Shown here: positions 865 to 40,793 of the stretch, piece by piece | Numbering within the stretch: position 1 is the stretch's first letter | How the letters are laid out: the number at the start of each line of letters is the position of its first letter | Source: Laetmonice hystrix | Taxonomy: Eukaryota | Length of the DNA: 64,000 nt | Direction of reading: 5' to 3' | NCBI GenBank assembly: GCA_965235115.1 | Contig: OZ249436.1 | Location: forward strand, 17,114,001 to 17,178,000 | The notes under the pieces: model-generated | The model's input: the letters and a program-made list of their open reading frames with translations, nothing else | What the model was told of the DNA's origin: nothing | Databases searched by the model: none | Made by a program: the position numbers and the translations under genes

Positions 865-8104
<7,240 letters not shown>

Positions 8105-28000: not shown

Positions 28001-31000
28001 AAGTGGGAGTCCGCTATCCTATAGGGAATACAAGGGATGTAAAAAAAACCCAATTACAGACGGTGTTATGCCATAATAGTTTGGCATAAACAATCAAGTA
28101 ATCAAGCTATGATGGGGGAGGGGGGCTGAGTGAAACATATCAGTCTTGTGACCCCTGCTGAGTAGAAGATATTCGGTTCACCGTGACTGGGCAAACCTGC
28201 ATCAATCTGTGCGTAAATATCTAGGAGACAGCCGGACTCCTGGTCAGGTGGCTGCCAGGAGTCCGTTCCAATTTTTGGGAGTCTCGGACTCACGGACTCC
28301 CGTCGAAATCGACCCCTGAAGATACTTTCAGGGGTTGGCAGCATGGTGGAACAGGGGCACATTTCTATTGTACAATTTCCTTTTGAAACTGGTTTCCTTT
28401 GTTTTTCACAAACCACAGCTAGTGGAAGCCCTGTATGAGCAATAAAAAATGTAATTCTTATCTGAATCAGGTCGTGTTTATTAATTAGTTATCATGTATT
28501 TTTCATATTACCTAAAACTAAAACTTTCATTATTTGCCCTTTGGCCAACTTTTGTAATGTACATGCCAAGGCTTTGCTGCTGACATGCCATGATACAATA
28601 TTCATGAACCCTTTACTATTGATAGACAGGGCCACCAACCCAGCCAACCGTGATGAAGACTGGGAGCTTTTAATGGCATTCTGCGACCAGGTCAACAAAG
28701 AGCTGGAAGGACCACAAATTGCTGTTCGTTTACTGGCTCACAAGATCCAGTCACCACAAGAGAAAGAGGCGCTCTATGCCCTTACAGTGAGTCACACCCA
28801 TCCTCATGCCTTTGAAATTCTTCTTGTCCAAAAACTAATGTTGTAATCGGTTAATTTCACAAAGCTGTGAACATGTTCAATCTTAAAATTTTGTTGTTGC
28901 CCAAGTGACAGTATGGATCCTAAAATAAAAATTTTAACATTCTGAAGCTTCCCAGAAATTGCTACTAATAGGCATACAATATGGTATCTTGCATGGATGT
29001 GATACAAAAACCGACATTGATAAAGGCATTGTGTTATTTCAGGCTTTAGAGGCTTGTGTGAAGAACTGCAAAAAACGATTCCATCAAGAAATAGGAAAAT
29101 TTAGGTTTCTGAATGAAGTTATCAAAGTTGTTTCTCCAAAGGTAAGTATTGAAAATCTTGATATCCAGATTGACCTGAGAGCAATAATTATGTATGTTTA
29201 GTGATTTCCAGTGTATAACTTCTCTGTCCATATGAAATTACTCAATGCGTTCATTTACTGACTTCAGTACCTTGGTAACCACACAACTGAGCGGGTCAAG
29301 AGTCGATGCATTGAGATCCTCTACAGTTGGAGTCAGTGCCTCAAGCATGAACCCAAGATCAACGAAGCTTACCAGATGCTCAAACGACAGGGCATTGTCA
29401 AACAGGACCCCACTCACACAGACAAGGTTGGTAAGCCTTGAGCATCAATTTGATGATTGTAACCACCAATGGAATCAGTCCAATTCTTCTGGAATGTTGA
29501 ATGTAGACTACAGAATCCGTAGGTCCTGCTTTAAATATTACATGTACTCTGTGTTATTAACCTGCAGGGCAAAGCAAGATTTAAATCAGGAGAAGATGTA
29601 TAGGCCATTCATGACATACATGTACTCACTTGTTTAGAACTACCTAAACCCTAGAATTGAAAGGCAGTGTTGAAAGCAAACACTCACGAGCTGGCCAAAT
29701 TCTTAGAACCTGGATATAGACAGCAAATTGATTTTAGTGAATTACAGAAATGCTGAGAGAAAAAGGAGTAAAGTGGCTTGTCTTTGAATCATGTACCATT
29801 CCATCAGGATTACAAACTGAATTTACATAATGGTTTCATTGTACAAGAGTCATTTTGAAATAATTAACATTAGTTTCCTGATGCTTATTAAGTATCATTG
29901 AAAGTTTTCCCACTTTACTTTATGGTTGCAGTTTGCAAAGGTAACTTTTCCAAGATATGTCCCTCAGTGTGATGTCATGTCGCAGTTATACCATGTCATT
30001 GGCCTCACCTGCCTGTGTTGGTAGTTGCTTGTTTTATATGCTGCAGTCATACCTAGAAATTAAATGTGGCAAAGGATTTATAATTCTACCAGTCCTCTGA
30101 GTTAATAGGCTAGACAGTGTTGTGATTCTGGGGAAAGTTCTGATTTTCTTCCACTTGAAATTGATATTCTTGGAATTGGGGTGAATCCTTAAGGATCAGG
30201 TTCCGTGAAACTTGTACCCCTGTACAAAGCTTGTTGAAACCAATAAAAGGGCCTCGCTTTGCAACATGCCAAGGAGCTCTGCTGATAAGTAACCACAGCT
30301 CATCAGCAGACGTGGTTGGGAAGAGATTTGTGTCCCTGACCCTTCCATTAATATAGTTTCTGACTTTTTGTATCAGTTTTCACTTTCAGGCCTAATTGGA
30401 TCCTTACTTTTGCATGCACTACATCATGAATCTACCTGATGTAAAATATAGTGTGCCGCTTTCAATGAGTGTTGTTACAGTTGCATCAAATTTTAGAATT
30501 ATGGATGTAATCTAAGATCTTCTGAGGGTTTTGTTATGACATGCTGCCTGTCATTTAATGAGGATCTGGATCTTTTCTTGTTTTAACACTGTCTTGGTTA
30601 CATCCTCAGAGGTCGCATGGTTTATCAAATTCTTAGGTCTGACAGATATTTGGTGTTTAATATTACTGATTGCTTGTATCCATTATGTATTTTAAATTCC
30701 CTATAATTACCCTGCGTGAATGATTCTAGCTTCTCTCATTCAAAAGGTAGAATTCCTGTTCATATTTCCATTGGTAGCATGGCGTGTTGTCCTAACATTG
30801 CATATAGAGCCATGAGTGTGGGAAGATGTGTACAAGGTTGTGACCAGGCATTCAGGGAAGAAGTTTCATATCATAGCATTTTCGACCACTCTGTCACTCT
30901 GACTGTGATATGTACAGTACATGTATGTCCATTCAAATGGTGGTTATCCCACTCATAGTATATTGACATGGTTTTGATAATAATGGGTGCGTGGAAACTG

Positions 31001-34000
31001 GCAGTCAGTCAGCAGGCAGAGTGCTGGCTGGAGACCTGACATCACCAGCCCCTGCTGCCACCTGGTGGCAGTCAACAGGCACAGTGTTGACTAGACCTGA
31101 CAATACCAGCCCATGCTGCCACCTGGTAGCAGTCAATCAATAGCCGACTCTGACCAGACATGCAGAACTTTACACTCTCACCAAGTGGGGGTCAGTCGAC
31201 AGGTACAGCATTGATTCCGACCTCCTGATACACAAATAAACCAACCCATGCTGCCACCTAATGGCTAGACAAAGAACTAGTTTCAAGATAGGTTCAAGGG
31301 TGTATGTATTCTTCTGTGTCTGTTCGACATTTCGCACCTTTTCTGGTCATATACTGTAAATCACTTTAATTTTGCATCATTAAAATTTCGCGTTTTCTTT
31401 TTCATTTTGGGCTGGTGTGGCGTTTCTTAAATTGGCGTTTAGGAGAATCCGCCATGCCGTGACTTCAGTTCCAAGTGTTTATTTGGCCTTTCTTGATTTC
31501 GTGTTTTTGTTGAAAACGCGAAATTAAAATACACGCAAAAAATACCTGATATATAGTAGTCTTTCTCCTGTTCAATCATATACCGGCAGTTCAGAAAGAA
31601 CACTTGAGACCATCCCATTTCCTGGCTATCTTAGTCAAGTAATGTAATCCATATTCAAAATCTGTATGTTTAATTATTGTTTTCTCATTGGTTTATTTTT
31701 GATCAGGTGATGGCAGGCAGAACCATTGATATATTTCTCAAGAGAGACTAAAAAGCTGATACAATAGATGTTAGATGAAGTTGACCGTGCCATATTGTAT
31801 TGCAGACATTTGAAGGCCCAGTAGCTGAAAGACCTAAGAATACAGTGTTTGATGATGAAGACAAGTCCAAGGTTTTCCTCCTTTCTCATTACTTTACTGA
31901 TCAAAGGGTAGAAAACAGTCCTACAATCCTAGATTTTACCATAGAACTGTACTGGGAGGGAAGACCAACTCTCTCTTTTTTCCGCTTGGGGCGCTAGTAG
32001 TCTTATGCGTTTGCAGCGCCCTCCAGTGGTTATGAGACCCGTAACGTCATCTGCCTTGGCCCAAGTGTAAACATGGGAAGGACCGATCGTCTATTGTGTC
32101 CCTGGATGCACAGATTATCAAAATAGAGCAGGACGAAAGGCAGGGAGGGTTAATTAATTACTGCAGTAGATTTATCTAGCCCACACAGACAAACATATGC
32201 ATTTCAAACGACTGACACCGAATTATGTACTCGCGCCAGTTCAAGCGGGCTTGGCCGCAAGGCTTGGGTCAACCCCCAATAAGAACGGCCCATTAGAAAT
32301 ACTAAATCACAACAATAATTTTAGAATCTATCCAGGCCGGATTTTAGAGGAATCCTCGATCTATAAATGTATATGGCATTCACATCTGTTACTTAATCTT
32401 TTCAAAATTTACCCAAAAAAACTGTCAGATTACGAGGGTATGAAATTGTAACGTCACAAACTTTGCCGATCTCCGGCTGTGCCAGTGCTTGGATTGAGAA
32501 AGGAGGGACCTTGCTAAACCATTCTAAGTCTATGACATTGTTTGGTTCAATATTCTATCCCTTTATATCACGTTTCGATGTCCTTCCTTGTGTATTTTAG
32601 TAGTTAGGTGCGTTTCAACTGCCGAAGCGAAGCGCCGTCCGCCATTTTATTTAGGGCCCGTTATGATCACATTCCATTGTGACCCATTGTGACGTAGCGC
32701 TATTGTGCATTGTTCCTGACGTCGCTGATTGGGTCTCTCAATCACGGAGTGGACAGGGCCCGATAAAATCGATTTTTAAAATATCTAAGAGTTTGCTAGG
32801 GCACCTAGATTTTTTCCAAGCCTTGGCTACATTCTGCTCCACTGCCTATACACTTTATCCATAATCAAGTTGATGTTTAAATCCAAGAGAGTCTAGGCCT
32901 AATGTCGCCGTCCTATGCCGAGCGTTGCACCCGAGCACCAGTCTCATAACCACATGGGAGCGCTGCGAACGACCCTACATATTTGAGCGATAATTTGGGC
33001 AGGAAAGAGAGTTGGCCTTCCCTCCAGTACAGTTCTATGATTTTACCTATCTCCATAAGCTTACACTGTTAGAATACCATGCTTATTGACTCGTTTGATT
33101 TTCAAATACGGAAACTTTAAATTTGATACACCTGGCTGCCATTTTACATATGTGGCCATGATTTTAGCTGTTGTCAAGGTTACTGAAGAGTAAACATCCA
33201 GAGGATCTCCAGGCTGCCAACCGGCTCATCAAAAACATGGTCAAACAGGTGCGTAAGGGTTTAAAGAGGGGAGTAAGGGGGTTGGGGTGGGGGCAGACGG
33301 ACGGAGGAGTGGGGTTTAAACAGGTGGTTGAGGTAGATTAGGGGGGTCAAACGATGTGACAGGATTAGGGGTCAAAGAGATCAGGTGAAAGGATTCACTG
33401 AAAAAAGTTTTCATGAAATCTTTCAATAAAAAGTAGGTCTGCAAAACAAATGGAAATAAGTATTTTTCTTTTGCATGTAACAGGATGCAGAACGTATGGA
33501 AAAGAAATCTAGACGACAAACCGAGCTGGAGACAGTTGGAAACAATGTAAAACTGCTAACAGAAATGCTGGAACATTTCTACCCTAACTCAACATCTGCA
33601 GCCGACAAAGATTTGATGAAGGTAAGTCAAATATATAAAAAAAATTCTTATTGGACATCATCCTCAGATTGTCATAATTTTAAAGGACACAGGCAAATGA
33701 CAGCAGGTGTATTGGAAAGAACCAAATATTTGTCTGAAATCTTTTTTACAGAATAAAATTGTTAATTACCTTTTTCATGACTCTTTGTCACAGGAGTTAT
33801 ATGAGAATCTGGAGAAGGAGAGACCAAACCTGTTCCGACTCGCTAGTGACACAGATGAAAAGGACAATGAAGGGATAAGTAAGTCTGCAGGCTGGCGATG
33901 GCCAGACAGACCAGGGGTCTCGTGTTGTAATCTACGGCCAGACAGACAGGGGTCTTCGTCTGGTAGTCAGCTGAGGTCAGATGTATGAGAGGTCTTGTAG

Positions 34001-37000
34001 TCAGCTGAGGCTAAATGTATAAGAGGTCTTGTAGTCAGCTGAGGCCAAATGTATAAGAGGTCTTGTAGTCAGCTGAGGCCAAATGTATGAGAGGTCTTGT
34101 AGTCAGCTGAGGCCAAATGTATGTACTTGTACTGATGTGTTCCTAGGTTTGACCACCAACCATTGTTGTTACAGATGCAATTCTCAAGGCCAACGATGAA
34201 GTGCTCAAAGTAATGACACGGTATAAAAAAATGGTAGATTCAGAGGATAATGGGTTGCTGCTGGACACGGGAGCATCTGGAGGGAAGAAAGATGGTATGT
34301 TGTTCTCCATGTTCTCCATAACATGGTTTCAAAGCTAAGGCTGAATGAAATATCCCTATTTTATACAGGAAAAAGTGTGACATTTTTACATTTCTATTTC
34401 ATGAACTACATTAATTTGTTTGTTTGTTTATTTAATCATTTGTCTGTTTTTTTCATTCATTTTTTCCTTTATTCATTCAGATGTGGCCTTCGCAAGAAGT
34501 CCAGTTTCTTTATTATCTTGTGCAGATTGTTTTGGTCATTTCATGCAGAATACTTTTTCAAATAACTGATGTTTAAGGTTACAGGACAAAGCGTATACGA
34601 ATACCCCTTGAAGTTTCGATCAAGGTTTCTATGGGAGGGGGAGGGAAGAGGATGCTCGAGGGGAAAATGTATGTTGGATTAGTGTCTGGATCCTGGAAGT
34701 ACCCCCATGACCCCCCTTGCGTACGCTCCAGCTAGCCATGGACAGAATCATGACAGTAGTGTTAGAGGTGTGTAGACTGAGAACCTGGATGAGGTCTGTA
34801 GTGTCAGTTATTAATTTTGTGAGGCCATGTTTGCTCTATTTCAGCTGACCTTGTAGATTTACTCGACTCATCCTCCACAGCCCCATCCTCCAGCCCCCAC
34901 ACACAGAATGACCACAACTCTTCTGCTTCCATTCTCGATGATCAATTGATGGTGCTTGGTGAGTCCCCTTTGCCCCACTAGGTGGCGCTACAAAGAGCCC
35001 TGGTAGGTGGTGCTGTACACAGAAGCCTGACCCTGGCATGATCAGCGTTACCTTGACTTTCCAGGACATTCACACACTCATGACCTCTGGCACGCAGGCT
35101 GTGACTGATTCACCAAGGCTACATGATAAATTATGTGATTATTTATGAAATACCGGGTATGAAGTTCAAATAAGCCATGGCCTTGACACATGAAGGCAGG
35201 CAGGATTTGATTAAGATTACCTCAGCCCAAACTTGGACCACTTCCTTACCCTGCAGAGATTCATCCCATGGAGAGCCTGCGGCCAGATTGTCATGTCGCT
35301 TGTTGTTGATTGTACGCTGCTGTGTATGAGTTGTGGCCATATAGTTTTAACGTAAGCTTCAGGTGGAGACTGTGTTCCGTTTCAGATTCGATGTTGTTGC
35401 ATGACCTACAGAGTGAGTAGACATTTGCTACAACCTTGGCATGTATACTAGGACTGCTGTGCAGCATGAACTCTGGGTAGAGCTAGAGGGTGTCGATGAG
35501 CTCTGGTTGGTAGAGCTAGAGGGTGTCGAGGGCTCTGGTTGGTAGAGCTAGAGGGTGTCGATGGGATCTGGTTGGTAGAGCTAGAAGGTCTGAATGGGAT
35601 CTGGTTGGTAGAGGTAGAGGGTGTCGATGGGCTCTAGTTGGTAGAGCTAGAGGGTGTCGATGAGATCTGGTTGGTAGAGCTAGAGGGTCTGGATGGGATC
35701 TCATCTGGTTGGTAGAGCTAGAAGGTCTGGATGGAATCTAGTTGGTAGAGCTAGAGGGTCTGGATGGGACCTGGTTGGTAGAGCTAGAGGGTTTGGATGG
35801 GCTCTGGTTGGTAGAGCTAGAGGGTGTGGATGGGCTCTGGTTGATAGAGCTAGAGGGTCTGGATGGGATCTAGTTGGTAGAGCTAGAGGGTCTGGATGGA
35901 CTCTGGTTGGTAGAGAGAGGGTCTGGATGGGATCTCATCTGGTTGGTAGAGCTAGAGGGTCTGGATGGGATCTAGTTGGTAGAGCTAGAGGGTCTGGATG
36001 GGATCTGGTTGGTAGCTAGAGGGTCTTAATGGGCTGTGGTTTGTAGAGCTACAGGGTCCGGATGGGATCTGTTCCCTTGAAAACCTGATGGCTTTGTGGA
36101 GCAGAAATATTCTGAAGCCGTTCTACCTGGAGGTTTATTTTGTGAATACTGAGCCCACTGGGATAGATTTAGGCTGTTTGTTTGGCTTCAGTAGTTTTAG
36201 TTAGAGGTTGGGATAATTTATTTTAATACATTGTAATGGACCTTCTTGCAGAGAATGTACTTGACTTTTCAGATTCTTTTCTCAACGAGATTTCTAAAGA
36301 TTCTGTCCCCAAATCATCTAATATACTCAATTAGTTTCCTGACTGAATGTTTGTAATCTGTTAGTGGCAGTAACTGTCAGTGTAGCTTAGAAGCCTGCAT
36401 GAAGACCTGATTGGGTGGTTAGGAGCAGGGTCAGACTGACCCACTAACATGGCCATGGTTTTCATCAGCTACCCCTGGCTACCACCAGCACACATATAGT
36501 CTGCCCCAGGTGCTGGCCCAGTATGCCCGAGCTGCTGGCCCAGTATGCCCCCGCTGCTGGCCCAGTCTGCCCCTGCTGCTGGCCCAGTCTGCCCGAGCTG
36601 CTGGCCCAGTCTGCCCCTGCTGCTGGCCCAGTATGCCCGAGCTGCTGGCCCAGTCTGCCCCCGCTGCTGGCCCAGTCTGCCCCTGCTGCTGGCCCAGTCT
36701 GCCCGAGCTGCTGGCCCAGTCTGCCCCTGCTGCTGGCCCAGTATGCCCGAGCTGCTGGCCCAGTCTGCCCCTGCTACTCAGTCAGTTTTGTCCACACTTT
36801 GGGGAAAACATGTGGGTGAAAAACTAGGGTGTGGCTGTGTTCACATTTATCTTTGTGTAAAAAATGATAAAGTAAAATTATGTCCTAAAGAAGCTGAGAA
36901 CCGGTCTGACAACCACCTAACAGAGACCAGATCTGAGAAGGGTAGTTTCTGCTTGACTCTTGGCTTCTAGTCCCCATCTGTGGGAGGCCGAGGTGGGACA

Positions 37001-40000
37001 TGTTTATACTAGGGGGGGCACACTCAGATTGAGTACCTTTCACAAGTAATGGTAATGACTCGTATGAAGGCATCATAATTTATTGTTTGATTTGACAGGT
37101 TTGGCCGATGGCAGCGCTGCGCCAGGAGACGGGACAAACAGTCTGAATGAACTAGGCGAGATCTTTGGTTCCACCACAACAACCAACACAGCTTCAGCAA
37201 CATCAGCCAGTGTTAGTTATGAACTAATCTTAACGCACAGTCTAAAGCCAAGGGTTCTCTGTATAAAATCTGCTTGAATCTGGAACGTATGCATAACAGT
37301 ATAGTCAAAGTTTGCTGAGCCCAAGGCTGACACTTATCAATGAGAGATAAAAGTTGAGATGCAGCCCCACAGGTATGATTAGTTCCAAGGCCTTGTATAT
37401 ACAGCATTCAGATTTAGTTGTCAGAATTTACAGCATTCAGATTTAGTTGTCAGAATTTACAGCATTCAGATTTAGTTGCCAGATGTGTCCCTCCAGTGTT
37501 CCCAGAGTTTGTATCAACCAGCTTTTTTCTCCATCAGGCGATCGACTCGGATCTGTTTGGACTGAAGACAAGTGGTTACTCGGGAACGGCCAGTCTGGGC
37601 AGTTTGGGATCCTCACCTGGTAACTCAGGATTTTCCAGCTTCATGTCGGCAGCCGCAGCTTCAGCACAGACAGCTGGTCCGACCCAAACCACGCCATTTA
37701 GTGTGGTTCAGCCCACGGCACCGATACCCAATCTAGGTACAATGAGTCCTGGTACCATGACGCCAACCCACACAGCCTCTGGAGTTCTGCTCAAACCAAA
37801 ACCAATTGGGGGTCAGAACCAGGCCGTCATCACAGGAATCCTGACAGGTCGGTGTAAACTCCACTTGTGTGGGGCGTTGTTAGCTTTGTTAAATGGAGAT
37901 TCTTGTTTGCTGAACCCTGCCTGAATATTGAGATAAACTAGTATAGTAAAGGACAGAATGTGGTCCATTCTAAGTGTGGGTAAAAAAACGAATAGACAGC
38001 TTGAAATAGGCTTGTTAAAATGAAGGAAGGTCAAATTTGAAGTTCGTCAGTATTCTGATGAAAGTTCCATTGTTCTGTACCTGCCGCAGCAAGTCAGAGC
38101 CAGATCAGCCCTGCCACCGGTACAGTCTTTACACCTGTCTCAAACTCGGGTGTAACAGCTCCGACACAGAAATCTGCACTCGATGACCTTGATGCACTGG
38201 GGCAGTCATTATTACAGTCGAGTCTCTCTCCAAGCACACGTCAAACACCGGCCAATAAGTAGGTTACTGAGTCTGTTACCTCAAGTAGGTCATTAGGTCA
38301 GTTACCTTTAAAGTAGGTCACTGAATCGCTGAGAATCAAATAAAGTTGTCCTGTAATCTCGGATTAGCCAAAAATGTAGATACCAGCTAGACTATTCAGG
38401 ATAATAGTTAGACATAAAAATGACAGGTTTCAATAGAGAAAATGAATGACATTTCCAGGTGCATACTTAAACAGACAATCCCTGTTTTCCACAGTGCGGC
38501 AGCTAAGATAGCCCTCAACCAGATGCAGAAACCTGCCTCGCCCACGCCAGGTTCTGGAGACCCATGGACCCAGCCCAGTTCACCGGCCCTCAAGGCTTTG
38601 TCCCACTCCCAGGCTGGACCCATGGGTTCACCCATAGCCACACCAACAGGTTCAGCCCATGCCTCCCCCAAACGTACCCCAGTTCAGGGAGGTCCAGCTA
38701 AGACGGTCGAGGTGCAGTCTCTCTCGGATTTATTTGTTCCACTTGAATCGGTGAAACCTGGTAAGTCTGCAATGATACCCTGAAGATGACAGGGTTTCCT
38801 TTCTAAGACCTTATTAAGCTCATATATGGCCTTATAGTTTTAAACAAGAAAAAACTTGTACAATTTGCTATTATGATCTACAGAAAATATGGGCTCTTAA
38901 AGGGAGTCGTAAAATTCATTTTTTCGATTTATGGCAGTCTTAGAAACATTATGATTCGCATACCTTGGACTCCCAGTAACATCATGTGAGACTGTTATGG
39001 CCCAGCGACCAGTATTTAGTAAGGAAAATATGCCAAATCTCTCGCAAATACGTAGCTCAGAATTAGCGAGCGGCCCACAGGATATTTGAGTTGGCCGCGG
39101 TCGGGCGATGATGACGCGTGATCACGTGACTTCCGGGTGTGGAAGGGAATCTCCCTCTAGTCTAGCATTGACCTAAATACTGCATGTACACCCGGAAGTC
39201 ACGTGATCACGCGTCATCATCGCCCGACCGCGGCCAACTCAAATATCCTGTGGGCCGCTCGCTAATTCTGAGCTACGTATTTGCGAGAGATTTGGCATAT
39301 TTTCCTTACTAAATACTGGTCGCTGGGCCATAACAGTCTCACATGATGTTACTGGGAGTCCAAGGTATGCGAATCATAATGTTTCTAAGACTGCCATAAA
39401 TCGAAAAAATGAATTTTACGACTCCCTTTAAAATATAAGTGTTTAGTTGAGTACGCTGAAATCATGCTGACATCCTGGAGATGCTGCTGACTGTGCCCCA
39501 TGTTTACAGGTACGGTGGAGCCACTGACAGCCTATGACAAAAATGGCATGAAGATTGTGATCCACTTTGGTAAGGACACACCGCGTCCTGATGTCACTGT
39601 GATGGTAGTCTCCTCAATGTCCACCAACACCAGCCCTGTCAAGAACTTTACCTTCCAGGCGGCTGTTCCAAAGGTAACAAAATTTTTGTTTATCAAACTA
39701 TTGCTGGATACATTGTTGGAAATGCGTTTTTTTTTCAATACCAGCTTTTGAAGAACTGCAGTCTGAGGTTAAGCTTACCTCTGTTACTGGGTTTGGAGAG
39801 TAACAGTTAGTTGATCTCGTATAGCTCTGTTACTGTGTTTGTACAGTAACAGTTGGTTCAGTATAGGTTTGTTACTGTGTTTATACAGTAATAGTTAGTT
39901 GGTTTAGTATAGCTCTCTGTTACTGTGTTTGTACAGTACAGTTGCTTTAGTATACCTCAGTTACTGTTGCTGTAGTATACCTCTGTTACTGGGTTTGTAC

Positions 40001-40793
40001 AGTACAGTTGCTGTAGTATACCTCAGTTACTGTTGCTGTAGTATACCTCTGTTACTGGGTTTGTACAGTACTGTTGCTGTAGTATACCTCTGTTACTGGG
40101 TTTGTACAGTACAGTTGCTGTAGTATACCTCTGTTACTGTGTTTGTACAGTACAGTTGCTGTAGTATACCTCTGTTACTGTGTTTGTACAGAACAGTTGC
40201 TGTAGTATACCTCTGTTACTGTGTTTGTACAGAACAGTTGCTTTAGTATACCTCTGTTACTGTGTTTGTACAGAACAGTTGCTGTAGTATACCTCTGTTA
40301 CTGTGTTTGTAGATGATGCGAGTGAAGCTGCAACCTCCAAGCGCCACGGACCTCCCAGCCTACAATCCAATCCTACCCACTGCGGCCATCACACAAGTCA
40401 TGCTCTTAGCTAACCCTCAAAAGGTATTGATGTCGAGTGGTATAGCAGAGGGCATGGATTGCATATACATGTAACCGTTGATGAACTATCATGCCATATT
40501 TACTTTAGTAGATGGATGTATCTTGGCCTGGCATTATGCTTTGAGAATTTATTGAGAATTTATTTATTGCAAAATCTAAATTGTAGAGGCCCCAGCATTT
40601 GCTAATTATGTAATACATAGATTGTATATTAATGAATAAACTCATTCTTCCAGTGATACACAAATCAGTTTTATGCAAATGTTTTTTTTTGTTTTTCCAG
40701 GAACGGATCCGACTCAAGTTTAAGATCAGCTACAATGTTGATGCTGACACAGTGACAGACGTAGGTGAAGTGGTAAACTTTCCAGTCCAATGA
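25012..40793 (+). CDS. GGA: ADP-ribosylation factor-binding protein GGA (VHS-GAT-hinge-GAE), GGA1/GGA3-like
   Basis: Exons 25012-25051, 28626-28786, 29043-29141, 29268-29426, 31806-31871, 33168-33248, 33484-33621, 33794-33878, 34175-34294, 34845-34958, 37099-37211, 37538-37847, 38090-38258, 38495-38760, 39510-39673, 40313-40423, 40701-40793 join in frame. VHS (ATNPANRDEDW, GPQIAVRLLAHKIQSPQE, IGKFRFLNEVIKVVSPKYLG), GAT (LLKSKHPEDLQAANRLIK, LFRLASDT), GAE (LSDLFVPLESVKP, FQAAVPKMMRVKLQPPS). Confidence 0.96.
26995..27125 (-). pseudogene. Possible decayed MULE-type transposase fragment
   Basis: Minus-frame LSLPVEHISSAFNQLKA..ILFMEYISNQRI resembles the LPFLPxEHIxxxFxxLK..L.DY...W. segment of animal MULE transposases; recalled similarity only. 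Confidence 0.4.
27325..27838. mobile_element. Harbinger-like MITE interrupted by a nested element
   Basis: Ends TACCGTTGACACACC / GGTGTGTCAAGGGTT, with internal caatgc..gcattg repeats. Confidence 0.6.
27479..27811. mobile_element. hAT-like non-autonomous element with 5-bp TSD (nested)
   Basis: TIR CAGGGTTCTCGCCAG / CTGGCGAGAACGCTG, flanked by CATTG on both sides. Confidence 0.7.
27924..28318. mobile_element. hAT-like non-autonomous element
   Basis: TIR CAGGGGTAGATTTC / GAAATCGACCCCTG with internal GGAGTC/GACTCC subterminal motifs; TSD not clear. Confidence 0.6.
29932..29940 (+). CDS. GGA: Candidate 9-nt GGA microexon (FAK)
   Basis: ttttcccactttactttatggttgcag TTTGCAAAG gtaact, phase 0-0. 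Confidence 0.4.
30998..31270. repeat. Degenerate tandem repeat carrying three CTCF-like motifs
   Basis: ctgccacctggtggca (31055), ctgccacctggtagca (31116), ctgccacctaatggct (31251), with similar flanks. Confidence 0.6.
31352..31558. mobile_element. Tc1/mariner-like MITE (TA-flanked), degenerate
   Basis: tactgtaaatca..aaaatttcgcg.. / ..cgcgaaattaaaa..tgatatatagta. Confidence 0.5.
31940..33039. mobile_element. 1.1-kb P-like non-autonomous DNA transposon with 7-bp TSD
   Basis: TIR CATAGAACTGTACTGG(G)AGGGAAG(A/G)CCAACTCTCT at both ends, subterminal inverted block (gcagcgccctccagtggttatgagac / gtctcataaccacatgggagcgctgc), exact TSD ATTTTAC (31933-31939, 33040-33046). Confidence 0.85.
33965..34125. 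repeat. 34-bp minisatellite, ~4.5 copies
   Basis: gaggtcttgtagtcagctgaggccaaatgtat(a/g)a repeated. Confidence 0.9.
35386..35412 (+). CDS. GGA: Candidate 27-nt GGA hinge microexon (DSMLLHDLQ)
   Basis: ctgtgttccgtttcag ATTCGATGTTGTTGCATGACCTACAGA gtgagt; phase 1-1 matches the flanking exons, no stop. Confidence 0.55.
35470..36072. repeat. ~33-bp minisatellite, ~17 copies
   Basis: ggtagagctagagggtctggatgggatctggtt repeated. Confidence 0.95.
36498..36776. repeat. 22-bp GC-rich minisatellite, ~12 copies
   Basis: ctgctggcccagt(a/c)tgccc(ga/ct/cc)g repeated. Confidence 0.95.
37401..37483. repeat. 29-bp tandem repeat, ~3 copies
   Basis: acagcattcagatttagttgtcagaattt. Confidence 0.9.
38901..39427. 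mobile_element. Kolobok-like foldback MITE, 240-bp arms, TTAA TSD
   Basis: ttaa|AGGGAGTCGTAAAATTC...ACTTCCGGGTGT (38901-39140), 47-bp spacer, reverse-complement arm (39188-39427)|ttaa; no mismatch seen by eye. Confidence 0.92.
39772..40312. repeat. ~41-bp minisatellite running into a GGA splice acceptor
   Basis: gtagtatacctctgttactgtgtttgtacag(t/a)acagttgct repeated; the last copy ends tgtgtttgtAG at the exon 40313 acceptor. Confidence 0.93.

Follow-up and report, generated by a model that had tools for sequence, protein, structure and literature searches.

A candidate 27-nt microexon that would add a DXXLL core to the hinge of an annelid GGA gene

In a 64,000-nt stretch of Laetmonice hystrix DNA (GenBank assembly GCA_965235115.1, contig OZ249436.1, positions 17,114,001 to 17,178,000 of the forward strand; referred to here as the window, in whose coordinates positions are given), we identified a 27-nt candidate microexon at 35386-35412 (+) in the hinge-coding part of a GGA gene. 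We judge that there is very nearly an even chance of its being a lineage-restricted, alternatively spliced and regulated microexon of the annelid GGA hinge. The candidate lies between an AG and a GTGAGT, is stop-free and of phase 1-1, and sits in a 2,140-nt phase-1 hinge intron that joins exon 34845-34958 to exon 37099-37211. Its inclusion would keep the frame, insert D-S-M-L-L-H-D-L-Q after the native I-L-D-D-Q-L-M-V-L, and change the next junction codon from G to S; in size and frame it falls within the range used for microexons (3-27, or up to 51, nt; AG/GT borders; frame-preserving; stop-free). The coordinates, AG/GTGAGT signals, phase and translations with and without the exon that an initial annotation of this DNA had given were all exact when the sequence was re-read.

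Reading along the + strand, a putative branch point (TTAAC, 35347-35351), seen in the sequence ~36 nt upstream of the candidate acceptor and resembling the branch-point consensus, is followed by two competing AGs (35361-62 and 35367-68, within 35360-35368), the pyrimidine tract and acceptor AG of the candidate (35370-35385; 6.0 bits), the candidate exon itself with a TGCATG inside it (35398-35403), its GTGAGT donor (35413-35418; 6.8 bits), and two GCATG motifs of the Rbfox type (35439-35468; +27 and +52 after the exon end). The upstream hinge exon (34845-34958 (+); 114 nt, phase 1-1) carries the native S-I-L-D-D-Q-L-M together with an LLD motif that we take to be clathrin-box-like, and the downstream hinge exon (37099-37211 (+)), placed from the sequence and a 16-exon gene model, starts with (G)-L-A-D. 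Note that the genomic frame read straight through the candidate adds 25 intron-derived residues relative to the true inclusion peptide, which spans exon junctions. Folding of the RNA from 35300 to 35475 gave no special structure (z +1.5). Allowing up to 3 mismatches, the 32-nt string of exon plus donor has a single copy in the genome (627 Mb). The exon and its two splice sites read the same in all three genomic DNA contig sets, which rules out an assembly error as the source of the candidate. Judged by eye, an origin by simple tandem duplication of the end of the upstream exon seems unlikely, as the pattern in the insert sits two residues out of register with the donor.

The identification of the host as a GGA gene, already proposed in the initial annotation, was borne out by homolog searches (1,724 matches among 1,747 candidates; in the GAT-exon search, 1 match among 18 candidates) and by a model of 16 coding exons (28626-40793 (+), the first coding exon not being among them), which without the candidate forms one open frame with a single terminal stop and has the VHS-GAT-hinge-GAE architecture of a GGA adaptor. 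The genome holds a single full GGA locus, the sole other match being one weak VHS-like hit. In a quick maximum-likelihood tree of 36 rows (a rapid IQ-TREE result and not a finished search), the gene groups with annelid sequences (SH-aLRT 93, unstarred); the nearest rows stand 0.9-1.2 changes per column from it, and there is no close relative among them. The VHS exons match the human GGA1/3 VHS structures, and the helix segment FRFLNE-IKVVSPK, which we take to be the DXXLL-binding groove, is nearly identical. Two minisatellites occupy the intron downstream of the candidate (35476-36071, 33-nt x 18; 36498-36775, 22-nt x 13), and another GGA intron contains a near-perfect inverted repeat of more than 200 nt per arm (38900-39121 / 39207-39428), with the same 74-aa frame on both strands, which is probably a fold-back element.

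The acceptor and donor of the candidate had been described as strong; we found them to be mid-range. In a small scoring model derived from the gene's own sites (16 acceptors, 15 donors), 7 of the 16 acceptors score lower than the candidate's 6.0 bits and 8 of the 15 donors lower than its 6.8 bits. Across the window's 128 strand-kb we counted 35 AG..GT pairs spaced 3-51 nt apart in which both sites are at least as good; 10 of these, among them the candidate, keep the frame and have no stop. Another 400 strand-kb of the chromosome gave 304 such pairs, of which 130 are in-frame. Decoys of equal site strength are therefore found at 0.07-0.33 per strand-kb, or an expected 0.15-0.7 in-frame in this 2.1-kb intron, and since equally good decoys are common, the splice signals alone do not lift the candidate beyond chance. 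What is unusual about it is the peptide and the GCATG cluster.

Three GCATG motifs lie within 70 nt, one inside the candidate exon and two downstream of it; the full TGCATG occurs only inside the exon, neither downstream copy being TGCATG. The window has no second cluster of this kind on either strand, and 5 were counted in 400 strand-kb elsewhere. At least two downstream GCATG follow 4 of 648 comparable donors (~0.6%) and 1 of 130 strong in-frame decoys, and a single one follows 54 of the 648. The candidate has the feature of Rbfox-activated exons, (U)GCAUG in the proximal downstream intron. Neural microexons of the Srrm3/4 (eMIC) type carry a UGC close upstream of the acceptor; no TGC is present within 40 nt upstream of the candidate acceptor, and a neural exon of the Srrm/eMIC type is accordingly not supported. 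ACTAA is absent from the 300 nt upstream and the 63 nt downstream of the candidate.

The inserted D-S-M-L-L has a DXXLL core, as do 9 of 6,399 in-frame decoys in the window and 40 of 18,797 elsewhere on the chromosome (~0.2%); among the 130 decoys elsewhere with equally good sites there is none, and a broad class of trafficking-like motifs is found in 1,115 of the 18,797. The insert also echoes, 11 residues on, the hydrophobic pattern seen in the native motif. When scored with a hinge-motif profile built from 71 distinct motifs of 197 proteins, 24 of 2,883 decoys and 59 of 11,705 shuffles free of stops do at least as well as the best window of the insert. In absolute terms that window scores poorly, at -1.4 bits, where no real motif falls below 9.2. 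DXXL[LM] is kept in only 26 of the 71 distinct motifs, which points to the hydrophobic pattern, and not DXXLL, as the unit that is conserved. The native motif lies where the initial annotation had placed it: in the accessible text of PMC13581114, S-I-L-D-D-Q-L-M is the equivalent of human GGA1 Ser355 and 358-DDELM-362, with the Ser at -3, and DDQLM stands at the DDELM/DEELL position of GGA1 and GGA3. Because of this correspondence, a DXXL-hydrophobic motif with its CK2 serine is already there without the exon. The residues just before the D of DSMLL are Q-L-M-V-L, with no acidic or phosphorylatable residue among them, and inclusion breaks the conserved L-G-L end of the native motif, lowering its 12-residue score from 24.7 to 11.9 bits through loss of the G-L end. 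The proposal that the exon supplies a second, canonical DXXLL that tunes autoinhibition therefore holds as far as the DXXLL core and the in-frame insertion go; the mechanism was overstated, the acidic/phospho context being absent and the G-L end lost.

To place the candidate among relatives, we drew on 429 proteins, of which 256 were at least 450 aa long with a GAT anchor and 202 of those had the motif core. The insert is found in none of the 202 homologous hinges: in 197 the core is followed at once by [GDS][LIFVM], and the remaining 5 show nothing comparable to the insert. The G-L-type motif end is kept across bilaterians. From 77 metagenome loci, four with the complete homologous intron were available (L072, L008, L065 and L045; annelid-grouping and distant), and none of the four introns contains a similar mini-exon (best BLOSUM62 score at most 17, vs. 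50 for the candidate against itself) or a DXXLL candidate. L072, the nearest of these loci at 1.04 changes per column, has an upstream exon end almost identical to that of the window. When the intron DNA was aligned to that of L072, L008 and L071, the result did not exceed what shuffles gave, and a degenerate-pattern scan of the metagenome contigs returned 0 matches. An ancient, conserved microexon was rejected on the absence from the 202 hinges and the four annelid introns; this verdict does not reach a family- or genus-level exon, because the available relatives are too distant. The conservation check proposed in the initial annotation thus found no counterpart in the sequences compared, all of them from distant relatives.

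Variation was compared among the three genomic contig sets, whose contigs show no splice joints, over 34130-35470, a stretch that ends before the minisatellite at 35476 and leaves the downstream exon outside. Five variant sites were found in these 1,341 nt, four of them within 106 nt upstream of the candidate acceptor; there is none in 35368-35470, that is, in the candidate exon and its downstream flank, which is weak support for the exon. The region upstream of the acceptor of a regulated exon is often conserved, and the distribution of variants speaks weakly both for and against the exon. The simplest reading of the five differing sites is a pair of haplotypes from a single animal, and for this reason the contig sets do not count as independent support. 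One contig set of the three has a G/A variant at 34273 in the GAT-hinge exon, which by our reading of the frame exchanges Ala for Thr.

The chance that this intron would hold such a decoy is ~10^-6 to 10^-5 if the features are defined strictly and ~10^-3 if they are defined broadly; note that the DXXLL and GCATG features were chosen post hoc, after the sequence had been viewed. Weighing this decoy chance against an assumed prior of ~2% that any one intron of a trafficking gene harbors a lineage-specific microexon gives roughly even odds for the exon. Its main competitor, to which we assign a probability somewhat short of one half, is a chance pseudo-exon: plain intron sequence whose splice-like sites, of average quality, are never used or are used only as noise, and in which the motifs are coincidental and were picked afterwards. 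The frequency of decoys of equal strength, the absence of the insert from homologous hinges and annelid introns, the polymorphism of the upstream flank and the disruption, were the exon included, of a motif end conserved in bilaterians all favor this account, which must nevertheless accept the joint rarity of the DXXLL core and the downstream GCATG pair; moreover, the absence from relatives loses force at the distances available, at which a family- or genus-level exon would escape notice.

A regulated poison exon, which we regard as improbable, would use the same donor, real and Rbfox-controlled, with an acceptor 23 nt upstream, so that the resulting frameshift and early stop would lead to decay of the GGA mRNA. 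The competing CAG there (AG 35361-62) scores 5.5 bits, near the 6.0 of the candidate acceptor, and is the first after the putative branch point; its use would give a 50-nt frameshifting exon and, 16 codons into the exon that follows, a stop. However, in two of the three contig sets both competing AGs are weakened or lost through variants at 35360 and 35367, the upstream CAG being GAG in these two and hence not fixed, and a poison exon would leave the motif-like peptide unexplained.

If the candidate is instead a regulated microexon, we propose that it would normally be skipped and would be included in some tissue, perhaps nerve or muscle, where a protein of the Rbfox family would bind the two downstream GCAUG and promote inclusion. 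Inclusion would place new residues between the conserved I-L-D-D-Q-L-M-V-L core and its G-L cap and would add, 11 residues on, a second and weaker copy of the hydrophobic pattern with a DXXLL core. The likeliest effect would be a retuning of hinge-motif binding, to the protein's own VHS groove and/or to clathrin, free of the CK2-site control that acts on the native copy. Given a real exon, we put the chance that DSMLL occupies the VHS groove at about one in three. The most specific version, in which an Rbfox-controlled annelid microexon would supply a second, phosphorylation-independent internal DXXLL and tissue-specific splicing, not CK2, would set VHS autoinhibition, we consider unlikely.

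Were the exon real, splicing would add, rather than delete, a sorting-type motif in a GGA hinge, and the two isoforms would form a natural pair with and without the motif for the autoinhibition of GGAs by an internal DXXLL, which the accessible parts of the literature present as disputed. Doray 2002 and Doray 2012 are reportedly the primary papers on GGA autoinhibition, and Cramer 2010 is said to treat the topic as well. That microexons retune short motifs in trafficking proteins is already established, and the reach of the present case is limited because the exon appears confined to one lineage. Were it not real, the candidate would be ordinary intron.

The same locus holds other short candidates. 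At 29932-29940 (+), in the VHS-GAT linker intron, there is a 9-nt phase-0 microexon candidate encoding F-A-K, with sites of 7.7 and 9.2 bits, above those of the candidate at 35386-35412, and with TGC directly before its AG; alternative inserts occur at this intron in Haliotis (3 aa) and in Ostrea and Crassostrea (4 aa), and of 12 annelid-like loci, the 10 that have an anchor show no similar exon. It is arguably as good a microexon candidate as 35386-35412. A 54-nt in-frame, stop-free candidate exon at 34481-34534 (+) pairs a weak donor (4.5 bits) with a very strong acceptor, whose 12.2 bits exceed the leave-one-out score of each of the 16 acceptors of the gene, in an intron at which Mytilus (4 aa) and Ptychodera (33 aa) have alternative inserts. 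In L028, a 12-nt exon candidate at 3545-3556 of that locus encodes T-F-E-P, the first residues of a longer exon at window position 31806, and this match suggests that another annelid-grouping animal has the linker exon divided, with a microexon as one part.

The GGA hinge is a recurrent target of splicing among the homologous sequences. Isoforms without the motif exon are annotated in nine molluscs (Mytilus, Magallana, Crassostrea, Ostrea, Ylistrum, Argopecten, Patella, Mercenaria and Ruditapes) and one hemichordate (Ptychodera), ten genera in all; a chiton isoform drops the motif through a shorter deletion, and isoforms or species of mollusc GGAs differ by 3 to 5 residues at other junctions. 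Such recurrence raises the prior for optional small exons in an annelid GGA. The motif-bearing exon 34845-34958 is itself followed by one GCATG, at 35036, and its skipping is likely here too because its equivalent is skipped in the mollusc and hemichordate isoforms. A second motif copy supplied by an optional exon was found in none of the homologs examined, and literature searches on microexons together with GGA and on annelid and mollusc microexons brought up, among the papers listed, none that describes a GGA hinge microexon.

Human GGA1t, which is without L277-S363, fails to bind clathrin according to the accessible text of PMC6637153; in it, as in the mollusc and hemichordate isoforms, the same hinge motif is spliced, but there the motif is removed, whereas the candidate described here would add a copy and interrupt the native one. 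The internal acidic-cluster dileucine motifs of human GGA1 (358-DDELM-362, Ser355) and GGA3 (391-DEELL-395) stand, in the part of PMC13581114 available, at the same position as the native motif here, which retains both the -3 Ser and the DXXL-M core; the new copy, in contrast, would have neither the -3 Ser nor upstream acids. With internal DXXLL cargo motifs (RNF11 DISLLH, TrkA, LRP9/LRP12), DSMLL shares a non-terminal core and, with the first RNF11 motif, a His at +5, but it is without the acidic residue immediately upstream; acidic residues upstream of DXXLL are reported to matter, and only one of the two internal DXXLL motifs of TrkA bound GGA3 (PMC4666136, accessible portion). The closest regulatory parallel is the 33-nt Snap23 microexon, regulated by Rbfox and QKI, which is likewise a short in-frame exon of a trafficking gene and whose inclusion is promoted by two (U)GCAUG downstream of it, at the Rbfox activating position (PMC12064062, as far as its text was accessible); for the GGA candidate, regulation is read from the motifs, and a third GCATG lies inside the exon.
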